A DNA stretch of 44,183 bases from Escherichia phage Psq-1. The stretch lies in sequence record PQ595991.1, one strand, 5' to 3'. Position numbers and translations under genes: made by a program. Of the stretch, positions 20,731-28,327 are shown in pieces. A model generated the notes under the pieces. The model made no database searches, was not told the origin of the DNA, and saw only the letters and a list, made by a program, of their open reading frames with translations. Numbering within the stretch: position 1 is the stretch's first letter; the number at the start of each line of letters is the position of its first letter.

Positions 20731-21338
20731 CCACATTTAAATTATACGGCGTTTTAGGACGTCGATTCGGTAAAGTGCATAAGCTGGATTGCTTCACTCC
20801 TGGCGAGGGTATCACCGGCCTGTGCGTGAAGTTACCCGGCTTACAGGACTTTCTAATGTCGGCACACCTGGACAATATAATGTTCAAGGTGCGCAAAGGC
20901 GACCACACGATGACCGGCTATGATGAGTTGGGCGAGTTCCACGGCAACCGCGTAGTTACCATCGCTCCGGTTATGACGGGCGCAAAAAGAGGTCTGGGCC
21001 AATTGCTGGCGGGTGTGGCAATAGTGGTGGCGTCGTTCTATACCGGCGGACTTGCTACCGCCGCTTTTGGGGCTTCGGCTGCAACCGCTGCCGCTATCGG
21101 AACGGCGACGTTTTCGTTCGGGATGTCGATGGCGCTGGGTGGCGTTATGCAATTGCTATCGCCACAGCCGAAAGGATTGCAGACACGGCAGGACGTGGAT
21201 AACAAAGCGTCGTATGCGTTCGGCGGACCGGTAAACACGACCGCACAAGGTACGGCACTTGGTGTATTATGGGGCGAGCGTGAGATCGGCGGCGCTATTA
21301 TTTCAGCCGGAATCGTAACCGAGGACTTGAACGAATGA
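20721..21338 (+). CDS. tail assembly protein (lambda I-like)
   Basis: 205 aa with Gly/Ala-rich hydrophobic core; position between K-like and J-like genes. Confidence 0.65.
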   Translation: MAMTTFKLYGVLGRRFGKVHKLDCFTPGEGITGLCVKLPGLQDFLMSAHLDNIMFKVRKGDHTMTGYDELGEFHGNRVVTIAPVMTGAKRGLGQLLAGVAIVVASFYTGGLATAAFGASAATAAAIGTATFSFGMSMALGGVMQLLSPQPKGLQTRQDVDNKASYAFGGPVNTTAQGTALGVLWGEREIGGAIISAGIVTEDLNE

Positions 21339-24300
21339 CGATTGTATACGACGTCACAGGCCATAAAGGCGGCGGAGGCAAACAGCACACCCCACAGGAG
21401 ACGCCAGATAGCCTGCATTCGCTGGCTAAAATCCGCATCTTGCTGGCGCTGGGTGAAGGGGAATTCGAAAGTATTACCAGCGCCAGCGAATTGCGGCAGC
21501 GTGTATATCTGGACGGAACACCGATCCAGAATGCTGACCTGTCCGAAAACTTCCCCGGCGCTCGTGTGGAGTTCCGCCCCGGAACCCAGCACCAGGATGT
21601 GATCCACGGATTTTCGGCGGTGGAAAGTGAGCAATCCGTAGGTGTAAAACTGGAAAACGGTACGCCGTGGGTGCGCCAGATTAACGACACCAGTCTTGAC
21701 GCCGTGCGCGTTCGCATCGGCATTCCTGCCCTGTACACTAGCGAAGATAATGGCGACCTGGTGGGCGGGCGCATCGACTATAAGATCGTTGTGTATACGG
21801 ATAACGCCGACCCGCGTGAGTTTACCTTCGCTGCCGTTGGTAAAACAATGTCGTTATACGAGCGCGATCACCGCATCGAGCTACCGCCGAACGTTAACAC
21901 CGGCTGGCGCGTGGAGGTGCACCGCATAACGGCAGACTCCACATCGGCAAAAGTGGTTAACGATATCCAGGTGCAATCTATTACTGAGATTATCGACGCC
22001 CGTCTTCGCTACCCGCTAACCGCGCTGTTGTTCGTGGAGTTCGACGCTAAAGCGTTCCAGAATATCCCGCGCGTGTCCATTAAGTGCAAAGGCCGCAAAG
22101 TTCTAATACCGAACAACTATGACCCGATTACTCATACCTATTCGGGGGACTGGGACGGCACGTTTAGACGCGCATGGACGGATAACCCTGCGTGGCACTG
22201 GTACGATATTTGTATTACGGAACGCTTCGGCCTCGGGCGCCGGATCAAACCGCAAATGCTGAACCGATACGCGCTCTACCAGATTGCGCAGCGCTGCGAT
22301 CAACTGGTCAGCGACGGCAACGGTGGTCGAGAAATCCGCTTTAAGAATGATATGTACATTCAGTCACAGACGGATGCCTGGACCGTGCTTAAGGATTTGG
22401 CTGCCATCTTCGCCGGGATGACTTGGTGGGGCAACCAGATGTTGAATATCGTCAGTGACCAACCGGTCGCAGCAGTGTCGCACACTATCACCAACGCCTC
22501 GGTAATTGATGGTAGATTCGACTACGCATCTGGCAGCCAGAAAACGCGGTACTCCACTTTCGCGGTGGCCTACGGCAACCCGAAAAACCACTATGATGAC
22601 GCTATCGCAACGGGCCAGCGCGTCGAACTGGTGCGCCGCCATAAGATTAACCGTCTTGATATCACGGCGATCGGCTGTACGCGCGAGTCAGAAGCGCAAC
22701 GCCGTGGGCACTGGGCGCTAATATCCAACCAGCTTGACCAGCAGGTCAGCTTCAAGGTTGGCATGGAAGGTCTATTCTTCATTCCGGGTAGCGTAGTCGC
22801 GATCGCAGATACTAATATTTCTGGCGGATTCGAGACTCGCGGCGGTCGCCTATTGTCAGACCCTGGCACGCGTACCGTGCTGAACACAGACAGCGAAATC
22901 ACATTCCGCCCTGGTGATAAGTTCCTGGTGCGCACCGATAGCGGAAATGTGGAGACTCGCGAGATCGCCAGCGTCAACGGCAACAAGGTCACGCTAAAAA
23001 CCGCACTGGATGCCGACCCGATTCCAGACCAACCGTTTTGCGTTGATGGCGATGATATCCAGTTGCAAAAATTCCGCATCACCGACCTTGAGTATGACGA
23101 CTCTACCAGCACTTTCTCGGTGCGCGGGATTGAGTACAACGATAGCAAGTATGATGCCGTTGATAATGGCGCTCGCCTTGATCCTGGCATCTTTACGCAA
23201 GTGCCTGACGGCGTAATGAAGGGGCCGGAGTCTGTGACCATCACACCGTCGCAGATCTCATCGCAAGGCCAGCTAATCACCAACGTGGATATTGTTTTCC
23301 CGCCGGTGAAGGATGCCGTGGTGTATGAAATCCAGTGGCGGCGTACAAGCCTGCAGAATATGGCGGTCCAGTGGGGTAACGACTGGGTGAATATCCCCCG
23401 CACGGCATCGAACGGCGCTCACATCCCTAACGTGTTCTCCGGTAACTACCAGGCGCGCGTCCGCGCGATCGGTATGGGCGAGATTTCATCCCCGTGGGTA
23501 TCGTCCGCTATCACGCCGGTGGAAGGTCGCCTCGGCGGGCTTAACGCACCAATCATCACCATCGCGATTTCGGGTCTGCATCAAATTCTATGGAAGTGGA
23601 ACCACAACAACGCCGCTACGGATATTTCTTACACCGAGCTTGAAGTCCGCAAGACGGGCGAAACGGAATGGAAGTTCTTAACAAACGTCCCGTATCCTGG
23701 CGCGGAGTACGCGCAAACGTCGCTGGAGTTCGGAATTTACCAGCAGTTGCGCGCCCGTGTAGCGGATAAAATTGGCAACCTGTCGGACTGGTCGGCCCCG
23801 TTTGAAGGGCAGGTGAGTGACAAAGTTGACGAGTACATGAAGGGGCTTGATGACGAGTTCTTGACTTCCGAGGATGGTAAACACTTCCAGGAAGCAATCG
23901 ACACCATTCCTCAAGGCATTTATGAGTCTATGCTAACGGACGCACAGCAATTGATTAACGCCCGCTCCGAGTATCAAGGGATTTATGCGGAAATCAAGGT
24001 GGCGTATAACGTTGCCACGGACGCCCACAAGGCAGTAGCGCAACTGGAAACGTTGATCGGCACACGACTTGATGATGCGGAGGCGTCAATCCACACGTTG
24101 CAGACAGCGCAAAGCACGCACGAACAAGCGTTCGCCCAGTACCAACAAACTGTCGCCGCTAAGTTTGGGGAACAGGAAGCCGCCATCCAGCAGGTACAAA
24201 CGGCAACGGCAGACGTAGCTGGCGCACTGGCGGAGTACAAGACCCAGGTCGCGGCACAGTTCGGTCAGCAGTCCGCCGCTATTGAGCAGAAGATGACGTC

Positions 24301-24781
24301 CACGTTTAACCATGCGGGTGGTAGCGCCACTTATAGCCTTAAGGCTGGCGTGACGTATAACGGGGCTTACTATGATGCCGGTATGCAGCTTTCAGTTGTT
24401 GCGGAAGGTGGCGCGGTTAAATCCCGCATCGCGTTCAAGGCGGACCAGTTCTACATCATGCACCCATCTAATGGGTCGCTTTCGTCCGCGTTTATCGTTG
24501 ACGGCGGTCAGGTGTACATTGACACCGCACGCATCAAGAACGCGTCTATCAACTTCGCGCAGATCACGGACACGCTGCAGTCGAATAACTGGAATCCAGG
24601 CAACAGTGGCTGGCGTATCGCGAAGGATGGCGGGGCGGAGTTCAACAACGTAACGGTACGAGGCAACTTGTTCGCTACTACTGGTAACTTCGGATTCTCT
24701 GGAGGGTCGGTACAGATCGACGCCACCGGCATTAACGTGCCGTTACCTGGCGGGGGTAGGGTGAAAGTGGGGACGTGGTAA
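21335..24781 (+). CDS. central tail fibre / host specificity protein (lambda J-like, 1148 aa)
   Basis: Size, position after the I-like gene, and N-terminal region typical of J-family tip proteins. Confidence 0.85.
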   Translation: MTIVYDVTGHKGGGGKQHTPQETPDSLHSLAKIRILLALGEGEFESITSASELRQRVYLDGTPIQNADLSENFPGARVEFRPGTQHQDVIHGFSAVESEQSVGVKLENGTPWVRQINDTSLDAVRVRIGIPALYTSEDNGDLVGGRIDYKIVVYTDNADPREFTFAAVGKTMSLYERDHRIELPPNVNTGWRVEVHRITADSTSAKVVNDIQVQSITEIIDARLRYPLTALLFVEFDAKAFQNIPRVSIKCKGRKVLIPNNYDPITHTYSGDWDGTFRRAWTDNPAWHWYDICITERFGLGRRIKPQMLNRYALYQIAQRCDQLVSDGNGGREIRFKNDMYIQSQTDAWTVLKDLAAIFAGMTWWGNQMLNIVSDQPVAAVSHTITNASVIDGRFDYASGSQKTRYSTFAVAYGNPKNHYDDAIATGQRVELVRRHKINRLDITAIGCTRESEAQRRGHWALISNQLDQQVSFKVGMEGLFFIPGSVVAIADTNISGGFETRGGRLLSDPGTRTVLNTDSEITFRPGDKFLVRTDSGNVETREIASVNGNKVTLKTALDADPIPDQPFCVDGDDIQLQKFRITDLEYDDSTSTFSVRGIEYNDSKYDAVDNGARLDPGIFTQVPDGVMKGPESVTITPSQISSQGQLITNVDIVFPPVKDAVVYEIQWRRTSLQNMAVQWGNDWVNIPRTASNGAHIPNVFSGNYQARVRAIGMGEISSPWVSSAITPVEGRLGGLNAPIITIAISGLHQILWKWNHNNAATDISYTELEVRKTGETEWKFLTNVPYPGAEYAQTSLEFGIYQQLRARVADKIGNLSDWSAPFEGQVSDKVDEYMKGLDDEFLTSEDGKHFQEAIDTIPQGIYESMLTDAQQLINARSEYQGIYAEIKVAYNVATDAHKAVAQLETLIGTRLDDAEASIHTLQTAQSTHEQAFAQYQQTVAAKFGEQEAAIQQVQTATADVAGALAEYKTQVAAQFGQQSAAIEQKMTSTFNHAGGSATYSLKAGVTYNGAYYDAGMQLSVVAEGGAVKSRIAFKADQFYIMHPSNGSLSSAFIVDGGQVYIDTARIKNASINFAQITDTLQSNNWNPGNSGWRIAKDGGAEFNNVTVRGNLFATTGNFGFSGGSVQIDATGINVPLPGGGRVKVGTW

Positions 24782-24788
24782 AGGAGAA

Positions 24789-24810
24789 GGGGCCATCCGG
24801 CCCCTTTTTT
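24789..24810. terminator. bidirectional rho-independent terminator
   Basis: GGGGCC-ATCC-GGCCCC hairpin with TTTTTT downstream on plus and an A-run on the other side, between convergent genes. Confidence 0.6.
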
Positions 24811-25774
24811 AATAGATGTTAGGAATTACGAGTAACGGGGTGGGTACTGCAATATTTTTACCCGGCATTTGGAATTGCTGCCGTGAATAGTTGCCGATTA
24901 CCCGGTTTTTGGCAATGCGCACATTACCGCCTGCCATTCGAATCCCGTTCATTCGAACGTGATTGTAGCCGCCGTTGTTCTCAATGAGCGCGCCGGTATA
25001 CGAAAGCTGGACCAGGCTATTGCCTATGTACTGATCGCCGCCGCCGATATAGATAAGGCGGTCATAAACAAATGGCTTATTCACTGTTGAGAACGTGACC
25101 TGACCCTGGTTGTTTGTCATGGTTATGCCGTTTCCAGGGGTGGGTGGCGTATTGTTGAATATAACCAGGTCCATTTCAACGGCAGCGCCTACGTCGTCAA
25201 TCCCACCATAGGACGCATTACGGACGATAATACTTCCGCCATCGAAGCCGACCGACACGTTTCCGTCGTCCCAGCGCGCGAATGGGACACCACCTACAGG
25301 TAACGGCATACTTCCGTTCACCCACACGCGCTGCGCATATTGGCAGGTCATTAGCCTGGATACATTTGATATGGCGGTGAAGTCCGTCGAGTTCGCCACC
25401 AGTAACCCTGCGTTGCGCGAACCCACCGGCAACACTTCCATGATCACCCCGCCCCATGTTGGAAGCCCGCTATATGCGCCATATGCGTCTTCACCTCGCA
25501 AGGTGATTCCGCCATCCCCGTTACGTTGTACTGAGGTGACGTAGAAAGGGTCGGGCAAGACCAGTGTCTGGTCGAATACTTCTATAACTTCAACGGGGCT
25601 TGTGAGCGCGACGACCAGATCTGACCCTGGCGTTAGCTGAGTGTTAATAGTAAGCGTCTTATCAGACTGGCAGCGCTGATAGAATGAGGTACAGAATGAC
25701 GGAGCGCGAAGTCCGGCTGTTATCTCCATCACCGGCCTTCCGTCGTTGTAGTCTATAAGTATTCCAGCGCCCAT
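24809..25774 (-). CDS. hypothetical Gly/Asn-rich protein, possible receptor-binding protein (321 aa)
   Basis: ATG 25774 with GGGAG upstream, overlapping the stop of the lipoprotein gene; beta-rich composition (GGGDQYIGNS, NNGGYNH); antisense between J and the tail fibre. Product assignment is by analogy only. Confidence 0.4.
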   Translation of the reverse strand: MGAGILIDYNDGRPVMEITAGLRAPSFCTSFYQRCQSDKTLTINTQLTPGSDLVVALTSPVEVIEVFDQTLVLPDPFYVTSVQRNGDGGITLRGEDAYGAYSGLPTWGGVIMEVLPVGSRNAGLLVANSTDFTAISNVSRLMTCQYAQRVWVNGSMPLPVGGVPFARWDDGNVSVGFDGGSIIVRNASYGGIDDVGAAVEMDLVIFNNTPPTPGNGITMTNNQGQVTFSTVNKPFVYDRLIYIGGGDQYIGNSLVQLSYTGALIENNGGYNHVRMNGIRMAGGNVRIAKNRVIGNYSRQQFQMPGKNIAVPTPLLVIPNIY

Positions 25775-25776
25775 AA

Positions 25777-25998
25777 TTACCACTCCCGAGATTTAACTGA
25801 TACCGTACCAGAGAAGTTGCCGTCACTATCCGCGGACAGGCCGGTGAAGCGCATGTCGACCTCCCCAGCAGGGACTTTTTGCCCGTCAACGTAGCGCAAC
25901 ATGCAGCTTCCGTAAGCTACCGTAATGCAATCGCCGTTGTTACGCTCTACCGCGCAGCCGGACAGAAGAACCGCACAAATCACAATTAATGTTTTCAT
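25777..25998 (-). CDS. small lipoprotein, Llp/Cor-like superinfection-exclusion candidate (73 aa)
   Basis: ATG 25998 with AGGGGA upstream; signal peptide MKTLIVICAVLLSGC with lipobox LSGC; four further Cys in the mature part. Confidence 0.6.
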   Translation of the reverse strand: MKTLIVICAVLLSGCAVERNNGDCITVAYGSCMLRYVDGQKVPAGEVDMRFTGLSADSDGNFSGTVSVKSREW

Positions 25999-26078
25999 GG
26001 TATCATCCCCTATATTTGGTTGAGTTTTAGTATTGCACCGCTCAACCAAGAATGCAACCAATTTATGAGGATTCAGCT

Positions 26079-27719
26079 ATGGCAGCGGGTACACTATCCG
26101 TAACGAATAACAGCAAGGCGGTTGTCGGGGTAGGCACGACGTTTACCACGTTTACCGCTGGCGACTTCTTAACTCTGGTGGTGGGGCAAGTGCCTTACAC
26201 TGTTGCTATCGCGTCCGTCGAAAGCGACACCGCGATTACGCTTGTGCTTCCGTTCGACGGCCCCACGGCAACCGGCCTCGCGTGGGATGGCGTTAAGCGC
26301 GATACCATGTCGCTGGCAACGATGGGCGTAACAGTACAGGCACAGAAAGCGTTGCGCTTGATGATCGCTGACGAAAACAACTGGCGTGCAATCTTCGGAG
26401 ACGAAGAAGAAGTCACGGTAACGCTGCCGAACGGGCAAGTTATGCAAGGTATGGCATGGGGCTACCTGTCACAATTGATGAGGCAGATCGACCCCGTTGA
26501 AATGCGCAACCTGCAACAACAAGCCGCGGCATCTGAAGCAGCAGCGCAAGGATTTCGCAATGAGGCCGAAGGCTTCAAGACTGAGACGGCGGGGATCCGC
26601 GACGCCACCAACCAGATTAAGGCGGATACGCAGGCTATCCGCGACGCCACCAACCAGATTAAGGCGGATACGCAGGCTATCCACGACGCCACCAATACCA
26701 TCAAGACGCAGACGGCCCAGATTAAGACTGACACCGGCGTTATTCGCGATGAGGCCAATGCCGCGAAGGCTGAAGCGCAATCCGCCCGAGATGCCGCGCT
26801 GGGATATCGGAACGAGGCCGAACAATTCAAGAATGAGATTGACCCGTCTAACTTTCTGGCAAAGGGTGGCAACCTGGCTGGGTTAACTGACTTGTCCGAG
26901 TCGCGGGATAACTTGGGTTTAGGAGCGTTGGCGACTAAAGATTCGGCGGCGCTAAACTCCACAGATACGACCGGTATTCTGCCCTTAGATAAGGGCGGTT
27001 TAGGCGCTGGTACCATCCCTGGCGCACGGGAGACGATGCATATTTATGGTCATGACGCTACGTTCGGGACCATAAATAATATCCTCACATACTTCAACAA
27101 TATTGCGGGTAACGGCGGACTCTTCTCGTTTCGAGATGGTGCCGTTGACGCCACTAACACCTACAAATTCGGCTCAGCAATACTGTTTCGCTCAGCCGAC
27201 ACCTACGGACTGTTAAGTGTTGACCACAACAACGGAAACGTTAGAGCATCCGGTGGTGTAGTTTCTGGTGGGATCGCGGCCACAGCATACATCAACAACC
27301 TGTGGGGTACGCGTAACACCACCGTAGACGGTAACGGGTTTATTAAAACCGCGTCGCCCATCGTCAAGATCTTCAGTGACGGTGCCGCGGAGACTAACGA
27401 CGAGGCCGAAGGCGTTACGGTGACTCGCATATCTGCGGGGGTGTATGTTGTGGAGGGGTGTCTAGGCCTCAACTCAGACCCATCCTGGGGCGGGCCTGAC
27501 GGCGGGATTGAGATTCCGACGGACGTGAACAAGCAGCCTCGTTTATGGGTTGATTATAAAGTGCGCGCTGACGGCTCTGTGGAGGTACGCACATACCACC
27601 GAACACACCCACACGCTCCAGCATTCGCAAGAAATGAGATAGAAGGTGTGGCGGAAGGGGACCCGGTTGATATACCGCGTGGCACGTTCATATCTGTTCG
27701 GGTTAATATGCCTGAGTAA
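26079..27719 (+). CDS. tail fibre protein (546 aa)
   Basis: ATG 26079 with GAGGA upstream; coiled-coil shaft with 14-aa repeats (IRDATNQIKADTQA), Gly-rich C-terminal domain. Confidence 0.7.
   Translation: MAAGTLSVTNNSKAVVGVGTTFTTFTAGDFLTLVVGQVPYTVAIASVESDTAITLVLPFDGPTATGLAWDGVKRDTMSLATMGVTVQAQKALRLMIADENNWRAIFGDEEEVTVTLPNGQVMQGMAWGYLSQLMRQIDPVEMRNLQQQAAASEAAAQGFRNEAEGFKTETAGIRDATNQIKADTQAIRDATNQIKADTQAIHDATNTIKTQTAQIKTDTGVIRDEANAAKAEAQSARDAALGYRNEAEQFKNEIDPSNFLAKGGNLAGLTDLSESRDNLGLGALATKDSAALNSTDTTGILPLDKGGLGAGTIPGARETMHIYGHDATFGTINNILTYFNNIAGNGGLFSFRDGAVDATNTYKFGSAILFRSADTYGLLSVDHNNGNVRASGGVVSGGIAATAYINNLWGTRNTTVDGNGFIKTASPIVKIFSDGAAETNDEAEGVTVTRISAGVYVVEGCLGLNSDPSWGGPDGGIEIPTDVNKQPRLWVDYKVRADGSVEVRTYHRTHPHAPAFARNEIEGVAEGDPVDIPRGTFISVRVNMPE
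26595..26678 (+). repeat. perfect 42-bp tandem duplication inside the tail fibre gene
   Basis: ATCCGCGACGCCACCAACCAGATTAAGGCGGATACGCAGGCT twice (26595-26636, 26637-26678), followed by a degenerate third unit. Confidence 0.85.
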
Positions 27720-27731
27720 AGCATAATGCGA

Positions 27732-27753
27732 AGGGGCCATTCGGCCCCTTTTT
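27732..27753. terminator. bidirectional rho-independent terminator
   Basis: AGGGGCC-ATTC-GGCCCCT hairpin followed by TTTTT, between convergent genes. Confidence 0.6.
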
Positions 27754-28327
27754 AATTTGAGTTTTCCCAGTCCATTTTGCGCCGCACAAGCGGGCTTTCG
27801 TAGTATTCCTTACCTTCCACTTCCACTAAATGCCAGTCATTCACAATCACGTATGGCTCTGCTATATCCTCAATCACGCCGTGCGCGCTATGCTGCCCGA
27901 ACGACACGCCAACCAGAATAACTCCGGCAACCCGACGGGAAAGATACTCGCGGGCACAACGGGCCTCAACCAGACCGCGACGGATGCCGCTGGTGGCTTT
28001 GACCTCATATGTCCAGACGGCATCAATCATGTGCTCTTTGTAGTCGGGACCGGATTTTACCTTGCGCTTGCCGACCATGATAATATCGCCGCGGTCAATG
28101 GTATTGGCGCTAAACAGGCCGGTACGCATGAGCAAGCCTTGAGGGATACAACTGCGCCCGCCTGCTTGCCCTTCCAGGTACATGCCCGCAAACATCTCGC
28201 CCAGCACACCGACCAGTCGGCTTTGCTTGCACGCGTCAGACTTTAAGCGCCATTGGTCAAACTCGATGCTTGCTATCATTGCCGCCAGGTGGAATTGTTT
28301 ACCAGATATTTCATATTCGCCGTACAT
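27752..28327 (-). CDS. hypothetical protein with PD-(D/E)XK-like signature (191 aa)
   Basis: RGDIIMVGKRK...GPDYKEHMIDAVWTYEVK resembles the D...(D/E)xK core seen in the VRR-NUC protein of this genome (PDLIIIINGKIVFVEVK). Weak. Confidence 0.35.
   Translation of the reverse strand: MYGEYEISGKQFHLAAMIASIEFDQWRLKSDACKQSRLVGVLGEMFAGMYLEGQAGGRSCIPQGLLMRTGLFSANTIDRGDIIMVGKRKVKSGPDYKEHMIDAVWTYEVKATSGIRRGLVEARCAREYLSRRVAGVILVGVSFGQHSAHGVIEDIAEPYVIVNDWHLVEVEGKEYYESPLVRRKMDWENSN

Follow-up and report, generated by a model that had tools for sequence, protein, structure and literature searches.

The closest described counterparts of the locus analysed here are the regions that the BASEL papers term a "bona fide RBP locus", each consisting of a receptor-binding protein (RBP) gene and a cognate exclusion gene. 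Maffei et al. (PMC8594841) matched alleles of this locus to receptors, described RBP loci as hot spots of exchange, and found that small deletions in the loops of lptD block seven phages carrying the module, Oekolampad among them. Humolli et al. 2025 (PMC11990801) predicted LptD for Bas83-85, and a 2026 preprint (10.64898/2026.04.02.716166) reports that one protein family at the RBP locus tracks the use of LptD. Experimental dependence on LptD was established for phage OzMSK by Black et al. 2025 (PMC13035648), who list BF9 as predicted to be LptD-dependent. In the same work the fold of the RBP is given as two lectin-like beta-sandwiches, with end loops pointing toward LptD and a basal N-terminus toward the tail (PMC13035648).

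The structural basis of this recognition comes from the cryo-EM study of Dunbar et al., PNAS 2025 (PMC12685063), which is the source of three entries of LptDE with the Oekolampad protein RBPOeko (9RPT, 9RPW and 9RQI) and one of LptDE(M) with the exclusion lipoprotein Rtp45 (9RPS). RBPOeko was obtained in soluble form on purification. It docks on LptDE from the extracellular side, in the open state of the translocon, and is seated deep in the extracellular mouth of LptD through an interface of ~1,700 Å² that involves mainly EL3-5 and EL11 and includes a bond between Gln299 of RBPOeko and Ser350 of LptD (PMC12685063). Binding or infection is lost when LptD carries D352Y or Y671N or lacks EL4. 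Rtp45 pushes EL4 of LptD outward, by up to 20 Å, and so prevents RBP binding sterically rather than allosterically. Expression of SEOeko, the cognate exclusion protein of Oekolampad, failed in the authors' hands, and the exclusion structure is that of Rtp45 (PMC12685063), which is 36% identical to the lipoprotein analysed here.

Two other systems share the general design. The Cor lipoproteins of T1, phi80 and N15 are small and mediate exclusion, and in these small siphophages their genes lie close to those for host range. Cor acts on FhuA. In T5, the RBP gene and llp are transcribed against the other tail genes. The T5 RBP (pb5, encoded by oad) is a monomer on the central fibre, and the adjacent llp, downstream of oad, encodes a small one-disulfide, periplasm-facing lipoprotein of the outer membrane that inactivates the receptor (PMC9586334, a study of the Llp-FhuA complex).

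The window, that is, the whole 44,183-nucleotide stretch of Escherichia phage Psq-1 DNA that was analysed, comes from a genome of the genus Dhillonvirus, and its gene pair between J and the tail fibre is an ordinary instance of a cassette already described, with which small E. coli siphophages recognise their host through LptD, the LPS exporter of the outer membrane. We estimate at roughly 90% the probability that this pair is the LptD-type RBP locus of Dhillonvirus, composed of a DUF6453 RBP and an exclusion lipoprotein, a reading drawn from sequence comparison. Over 1.5 kb the locus is 99.1% identical to that of Escherichia phage vB_EcoS_011D5, and many other Dhillonvirus genomes, including the BASEL phages Bas83-85, range from 84 to 96% (90.6% DNA identity for Bas84). 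The predicted RBP is 100% identical to its 011D5 homologue, and the window contributes only one more allele to the published picture. The open reading frame list bears out the antisense gene pair that had been proposed in an earlier note on this DNA: two neighbouring minus-strand frames are flanked by a J-like gene and a lateral tail fibre gene, both on the plus strand.

21335-24781, plus strand: J-like central tail fibre or tail tip protein, 1148 aa (Pfam FNIII-A_GpJ, Phage-tail_3 and Phage_Tail_Tip; PHROG 31 'central tail fiber J').
24809-25774, minus strand: RBP gene, 321 aa, DUF6453, predicted binder of the LptD/LptE LPS translocon (Pfam and PDB sequence matches).
25777-25998, minus strand: predicted superinfection-exclusion lipoprotein gene, 73-aa precursor (Pfam PF24052, PHROG 4281, PDB 9RPS chain D).
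25999-26078, no strand assigned: divergent control region of 80 bp between the lipoprotein and lateral fibre genes, with both Shine-Dalgarno sequences and candidate promoters.
26079-27719, plus strand: lateral tail fibre gene, 546 aa from the ATG at 26079 (PHROG tail fiber families; Pfam Phage_tail_C_2; start according to the annotation of relatives).

The structural genes through J are transcribed rightward and the lipoprotein-RBP pair leftward, as is a block from 27752 to about 40050, so that the tail fibre gene is a lone rightward unit between two leftward stretches. Relatives annotate a tail fibre start equivalent to 26079, and the intergenic region therefore spans 25999-26078, as had been claimed. 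The J-like protein, presumed to be the docking platform for a separate RBP, is 95.4% identical to J of Oekolampad over 989 aa and 86% across the last 150 aa. The lateral tail fibre is the primary glycan-binding fibre; over its first 100 residues it shares 95% identity with the Oekolampad fibre, and its C-terminus is divergent.

This gene architecture, directly observed here, recurs in 8-9 other phages of three lineages, in which the RBP gene and the J homologue converge and a lipoprotein gene in turn precedes the RBP gene. The carriers, representative of many more, are 011D5, Oekolampad, Bas84, WFI, JL1, Pandora71 and bov22_1 (Dhillonvirus), Rtp (rtp43/44/45, Drexlerviridae) and OzMSK, in whose record the RBP is annotated as LptD-binding 'based on experimental evidence'. 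Oekolampad (bas18_0025/bas18_0026) shares with our phage the genus, gene order, orientation, 80-bp control region and terminator, and differs by 39 substitutions in the RBP, 3 in the lipoprotein and the divergent C-terminal part of the lateral fibre. In Rtp the lipoprotein gene (rtp45) likewise precedes the RBP gene (rtp44), both run toward the J homologue, and the disulfide cysteines and a VPAGEVD motif are conserved, but there is a 1-nt overlap of stop and start, and a recombination module instead of a lateral fibre gene lies upstream of the pair. The layout had also been likened to that of T5. The likeness holds for the exclusion lipoprotein gene next to an RBP gene, and fails for gene order (the lipoprotein gene lies upstream of the RBP gene here), for sequence family and for the receptor, since T5 uses FhuA with allosteric exclusion whereas LptD is blocked by steric displacement of a loop.

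The 321-aa protein matches Pfam DUF6453 with an E-value of 5.5e-120 and 400.5 bits (gathering cut-off, 25 bits) over profile positions 1-290 of 291, and a PDB sequence search retrieved chain C of 9RPT, 9RPW and 9RQI at E 2.9e-187, covering residues 1-321. Identity to RBPOeko is 87.9% (282/321) without indels, and Gln299, the one residue that the main text of PMC12685063 names as contacting LptD, is conserved. Identity is 86% to the RBP of BF9 and 32.5% to Rtp44, and tblastn found the RBP in 436 phage records. The description of the protein as Gly/Asn-rich was fair (G 12.5%, V 10.3%, N 7.8%), and its supposed beta-rich character fits the two lectin-like beta-sandwiches described for the RBP fold (PMC13035648). 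The earlier note had left open whether this protein was the true RBP or an exclusion factor; its homology to a protein solved on LptDE argues for the former and against the latter. LptD, rather than FhuA, is most likely its receptor, which for this particular allele we infer from homology.

The 39 substitutions that separate the protein from RBPOeko are clustered at residues 27-59, 83-108, 139-161 and 240-249, and they may have shifted its preference among LptD alleles. Another reading, by which the protein would have drifted or switched from K-12-type LptD to the LptD variant of other strains or to another outer-membrane protein, would draw on this clustering, on the exchange known at RBP loci (PMC8594841) and on the occurrence of DUF6453 homologues in Klebsiella, Salmonella and Vibrio phages. 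We consider it improbable, however, as all experimentally tested DUF6453 RBPs use LptD, down to ~32% identity; these comprise the RBPs of Bas01/02, Bas14, Bas18-20, Bas25 and OzMSK (PMC8594841; 10.64898/2026.04.02.716166; PMC13035648). Furthermore, the cognate lipoproteins of our phage and of LptD-dependent Oekolampad share 96% identity, and the RBP itself carries no indels.

The 321-aa protein also matches PHROG 1265, labelled 'membrane protein / moron', and several GenBank records agree; 'auxiliary metabolic gene and host takeover' is a further database label. If these labels were right, the protein would be non-structural, a membrane-associated moron or an exclusion factor. Against this, its N-terminus reads MGAGILIDY and no signal peptide or hydrophobic segment is visible in its sequence, its homologue is soluble when purified and docks on LptDE from the extracellular side (PMC12685063), and the database labels are propagated automatic annotations. 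We hence rejected the label, and regard a non-structural role as extremely unlikely.

Both frames are real genes and not chance products, as judged from their Pfam scores and from an excess of synonymous changes. Compared with Oekolampad, the RBP gene shows 129 synonymous and 39 non-synonymous codon differences, the lipoprotein gene 24 and 3, respectively, and both genes are under purifying selection relative to that phage.

The lipoprotein frame starts at an ATG at 25998 and stops at 25777-25779. Its product begins MKTLIVICAVLLSGC, with a basic, K-containing n-region and a hydrophobic core that leads into the lipobox L-S-G-C at residues 12-15, so that the proposal of a 73-aa lipoprotein with an LSGC lipobox withstands a reading of the sequence. 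The lipobox reads MKTLIVICAVLL-SG-C15-A16. The residue at +2 is Ala and not Asp, which is compatible with sorting to the outer membrane under the established +2 rule for E. coli lipoproteins. To call the mature part Cys-rich was an overstatement, since besides Cys15, the predicted lipidation site, it contains only two cysteines, Cys24 and Cys32. These align with the Cys30-Cys38 disulfide pair of Rtp45, and we predict that they form a disulfide as well.

By homology, the protein belongs to the Pfam family PF24052 'Phage lipoprotein family' (E 5.4e-22, 78 bits, for a cut-off of 27 bits; Rtp45 itself scores 128 bits) and to PHROG 4281 (E 3e-33), and it matches Rtp45 in PDB 9RPS, chain D (E 5.8e-9). 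Identity is 95.9% (70/73, at equal lengths) to SEOeko (bas18_0026) and 35.8% to Rtp45, with the VPAGEVD motif aligned. Rtp44 and Rtp45 thus fall into the same two Pfam families as the 321-aa protein and the lipoprotein, and no further Pfam family was matched by our two proteins. With tblastn, the lipoprotein was found in 390 phage records. The idea of a superinfection-exclusion lipoprotein encoded beside the receptor-binding genes is supported by its identity to SEOeko and by the family shared with Rtp45.

The lipoprotein had been called Llp/Cor-like, a description that is apt for function and not for sequence. A PDB sequence search at E<=10 returned only Rtp45 and chance matches, and not Llp; the match to the Cor family, PHROG 1119 (E 5e-4), is confined to residues 1-30, that is, to the signal peptide and lipobox. 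Membership in either family was therefore rejected. The same observations bear on whether the protein could be a Cor/Llp-type blocker of FhuA or of another TonB-dependent transporter, acting through long-range allostery as in T5. Such a role could claim the weak Cor match and a common design, in which a small one-disulfide lipoprotein is encoded beside the RBP gene (PMC9586334). Set against these are the restriction of the Cor match to the signal peptide, the lack of an Llp match in the PDB at E<=10, and the strong PF24052 membership shared with Rtp45, which was solved on LptDE and acts through steric displacement of loop 4. A Cor/Llp-type action on a TonB-dependent transporter has, in our view, only the slimmest chance of being correct, and we retain the reading as a predicted LptD-directed exclusion lipoprotein.

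The stop and start codons of the two genes had been described as overlapping. The RBP frame runs from an ATG at 25774 to a stop at 24809-24811, and with this start the genes abut, the junction reading TAA-TT-ATG with a 2-nt gap. A GGGAG Shine-Dalgarno sequence lies 8 nt upstream of the ATG, which agrees with the N-terminus of the solved homologue. An overlap arises only from an alternative in-frame GTG at 25783, which would yield 324 aa and is an unlikely start. The 2-base gap and the position of the GGGAG sequence indicate that the genes are tightly coupled without overlap, and we infer that they are co-transcribed.

On the other side of the RBP gene lies a GC-rich hairpin that has a near-copy beyond the tail fibre gene (27731-27750).

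24787-24810, no strand assigned: hairpin terminator common to the convergent J and RBP genes (AAGGGGCC-ATCC-GGCCCCTT, then a T run).
27731-27755, no strand assigned: second, almost identical terminator hairpin after the tail fibre gene (AAGGGGCC-ATTC-GGCCCCTT and a T run).

The T run of the first hairpin overlaps the RBP stop codon. Its folding energy is -19.7 kcal/mol on the plus strand (z -2.9) and -15.7 kcal/mol on the minus strand, it is kept in 8 relatives, and the record of phage WFI annotates a terminator. A consensus terminator scan reported no terminators, although hairpin and T run are plain at 24787-24810, and the call at this position is based on RNA folding and on the WFI annotation. 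The second hairpin folds at -17.9 and -16.7 kcal/mol. The window has these two copies and no others, against an expectation of 0.02, and the two-copy arrangement is also present in 011D5 and Oekolampad. As a consequence of the two terminators, the lipoprotein-RBP pair would depend on a promoter within or close to the 80-bp region, and so would the fibre gene.

This region is ~95% conserved in 18 distinct relatives. On the plus strand, a scan returned a sigma-70-like candidate, ATCACA-16-TG-n-TATCAT (25979-26006), that overlaps the lipoprotein start codon. On the minus strand, a candidate that is below the scan threshold was picked by eye, TTGCAT (26057-26052)-17-TGcAATACT (26034-26029). The sigma-70 scan yielded 2 sites versus 1.7 expected by chance, and promoter assignments are therefore tentative; if correct, the two candidate promoters would face each other. 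Between the two genes there is also a repeat.

26016-26024 and 26041-26049, plus strand: 9-bp inverted repeat (TTGGTTGAG-N16-CTCAACCAA), exact; within its 5' leader, the fibre transcript could form a hairpin here.

The repeat is exactly where it had been reported. A further CAACCAA at 26055-26061 brings the copies of TTGGTTG/CAACCAA in the 80-bp region to three, and motifs of this type are not a genome-wide signal (12 matches with <=1 mismatch versus 7.8 expected). Around the inverted repeat, a local 47-nt fold reaches -12.7 kcal/mol (z -2.8), and folding of the whole 80-bp region is not unusual (z -0.6 and -1.3). Across the 18 distinct relatives, 97.5% of the cells of the stem are paired when it is read as plus-strand RNA versus 84% on the minus strand; changes in the stem are mostly transitions in the right arm, yielding G·U pairs on the plus strand. 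One compensatory pair was found, from UA to UG to CG, in which a T-to-C change in the left arm is matched by A-to-G in 3 of 4 sequences. In a shuffle control for stem covariation neither the cells paired (95/500) nor the score (86/500) was significant, and the region is ~95% conserved in any case; the covariation evidence is thus weak, and we claim no proven RNA structure at the inverted repeat. We rate the hairpin as real, if unproven, and as probably either tolerated or selected as a structure of the leader preceding the fibre gene. An Rfam search gave no match, and a tRNA search found none. A search for related loci gave 5, and in a 17-mer scan of metagenome contigs most matches were due to chance, the only true relatives being L082, L161 and L166.

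Because of the three TTGGTTG/CAACCAA copies, the better pairing on the plus strand and the candidate promoters, which seem to face each other with overlapping starts, the 80-bp region could conceivably act as a switch by which the exclusion lipoprotein is expressed early and the RBP and lateral fibre late, through promoter interference or through a stabilising hairpin at the 5' terminus of the fibre mRNA. We hold this to be doubtful.

The exclusion and RBP roles are assigned to the lipoprotein and the 321-aa protein because of their homology to characterised proteins, and from these roles we propose the following course of events. The RBP would be carried, as a monomer, by the tip of the central, J-like fibre. 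The lateral fibre would deal first with surface glycans, after which the loop-bearing end of the RBP would enter the extracellular mouth of the LptD barrel. Both genes would be read leftward as one unit, coupled through the stop-TT-ATG junction and starting in the 80 bp that also serve the fibre gene, and this unit would end at the hairpin terminator it has in common with J. The 73-aa product would be exported, lipidated at Cys15 and, with Ala at +2, delivered to the outer membrane, where it would reside in the inner leaflet. From the periplasmic side it would bind LptD and push extracellular loop 4 outward, so that an RBP is no longer accepted. The infected cell would in this way be shielded from superinfection, and the progeny kept from sticking to debris.

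Gene layout and lipobox alone sufficed to arrive at the right function, and the locus therefore serves as a positive control. Its use for understanding host range and immunity follows from published work (BASEL 2021 and 2025; LptDE structures 2025). In these phages the module explains how infected cells turn immune, and it is useful for the prediction of host range, the design of phage cocktails and receptor engineering.

Exactly two copies of the terminator hairpin AAGGGGCC-N4-GGCCCCTT, each followed by a T run, are present in the Psq-1 genome, against 0.02 expected, and both have the same orientation:

24787-24810, terminator hairpin
27731-27755, terminator hairpin

The two copies flank a 2.9-kb stretch that carries both host-range determinants, the RBP with its exclusion partner as well as the lateral tail fibre; the same pair of hairpins is present in phages vB_EcoS_011D5 and Oekolampad. 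The duplicated hairpin could serve as a homology anchor in cassette exchange. At the J/RBP terminator, the 4-nt loop (24795-24798) reads ATCC in the window and likewise in Oekolampad, Bas84 and WFI, while the otherwise 99%-identical 011D5 has GGAT, its reverse complement. This difference bears the signature of a hairpin flip, by template switching or inversion inside the palindromic stem.

Comparison with Oekolampad showed that 12% of residues have diverged in the RBP, which faces the extracellular side, against 4% in the lipoprotein, which faces the periplasm. In J, the last 150 aa are 86% conserved and the remainder 95%. This pattern fits a J tip that would co-vary with the RBP, together with quicker evolution at the surface-loop interface.

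The entire intergenic region between the lipoprotein and tail fibre genes is roughly two-fold symmetric around a centre at 26038.5, with the symmetry spanning 26005-26072. Its inverted pair (26005-26022 / 26055-26072) is 72% complementary, the two Shine-Dalgarno sequences are mirrored across the centre, as are two TTGGTTG copies, and a third TTGGTTG copy makes up the 9-bp stem. The longest tail fibre ORF starts at ATG 26052 (555 aa). The annotation of relatives places the start at the equivalent of 26079 (546 aa), with a GAGGA Shine-Dalgarno sequence. A mechanical ORF call would absorb 26052-26078, one third of the control region.

The E. coli-type module was also found, near-identical or clearly related, in records named Acinetobacter phage NJ01, Campylobacter phages A127/A131 and Sodalis phage SO-1 (hits H23, H37, H101 and H150). 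These host labels look doubtful, or else unexpected hosts were used to propagate the phages.

Prolate podophages that belong to the Gordonclarkvirinae, namely Kuravirus and its relatives, encode homologues of both the RBP and the lipoprotein. They include Bas87, 91, 92 and 94 and records of ~67-82 kb among hits H72-H84 and H118-H145. Kuravirus Ptacy1532 (PQ863255.1) carries the following:

L169:4659-5693, DUF6453 homologue, 344 aa (E 2e-25)
L170:2468-2749, PF24052 lipoprotein, 93 aa (E 2.6e-36)

The DUF6453 gene directly follows the genes for the tail fibre and the 'tail tip fiber'. The lipoprotein has a lipobox as well as cysteines and a motif of the Rtp45 type; its gene lies ~46 kb away, amid small early-type genes. 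In the literature searched we found no link of Gordonclarkvirinae podophages to LptD. LptD may be the terminal receptor of these podophages, with exclusion acting through it.
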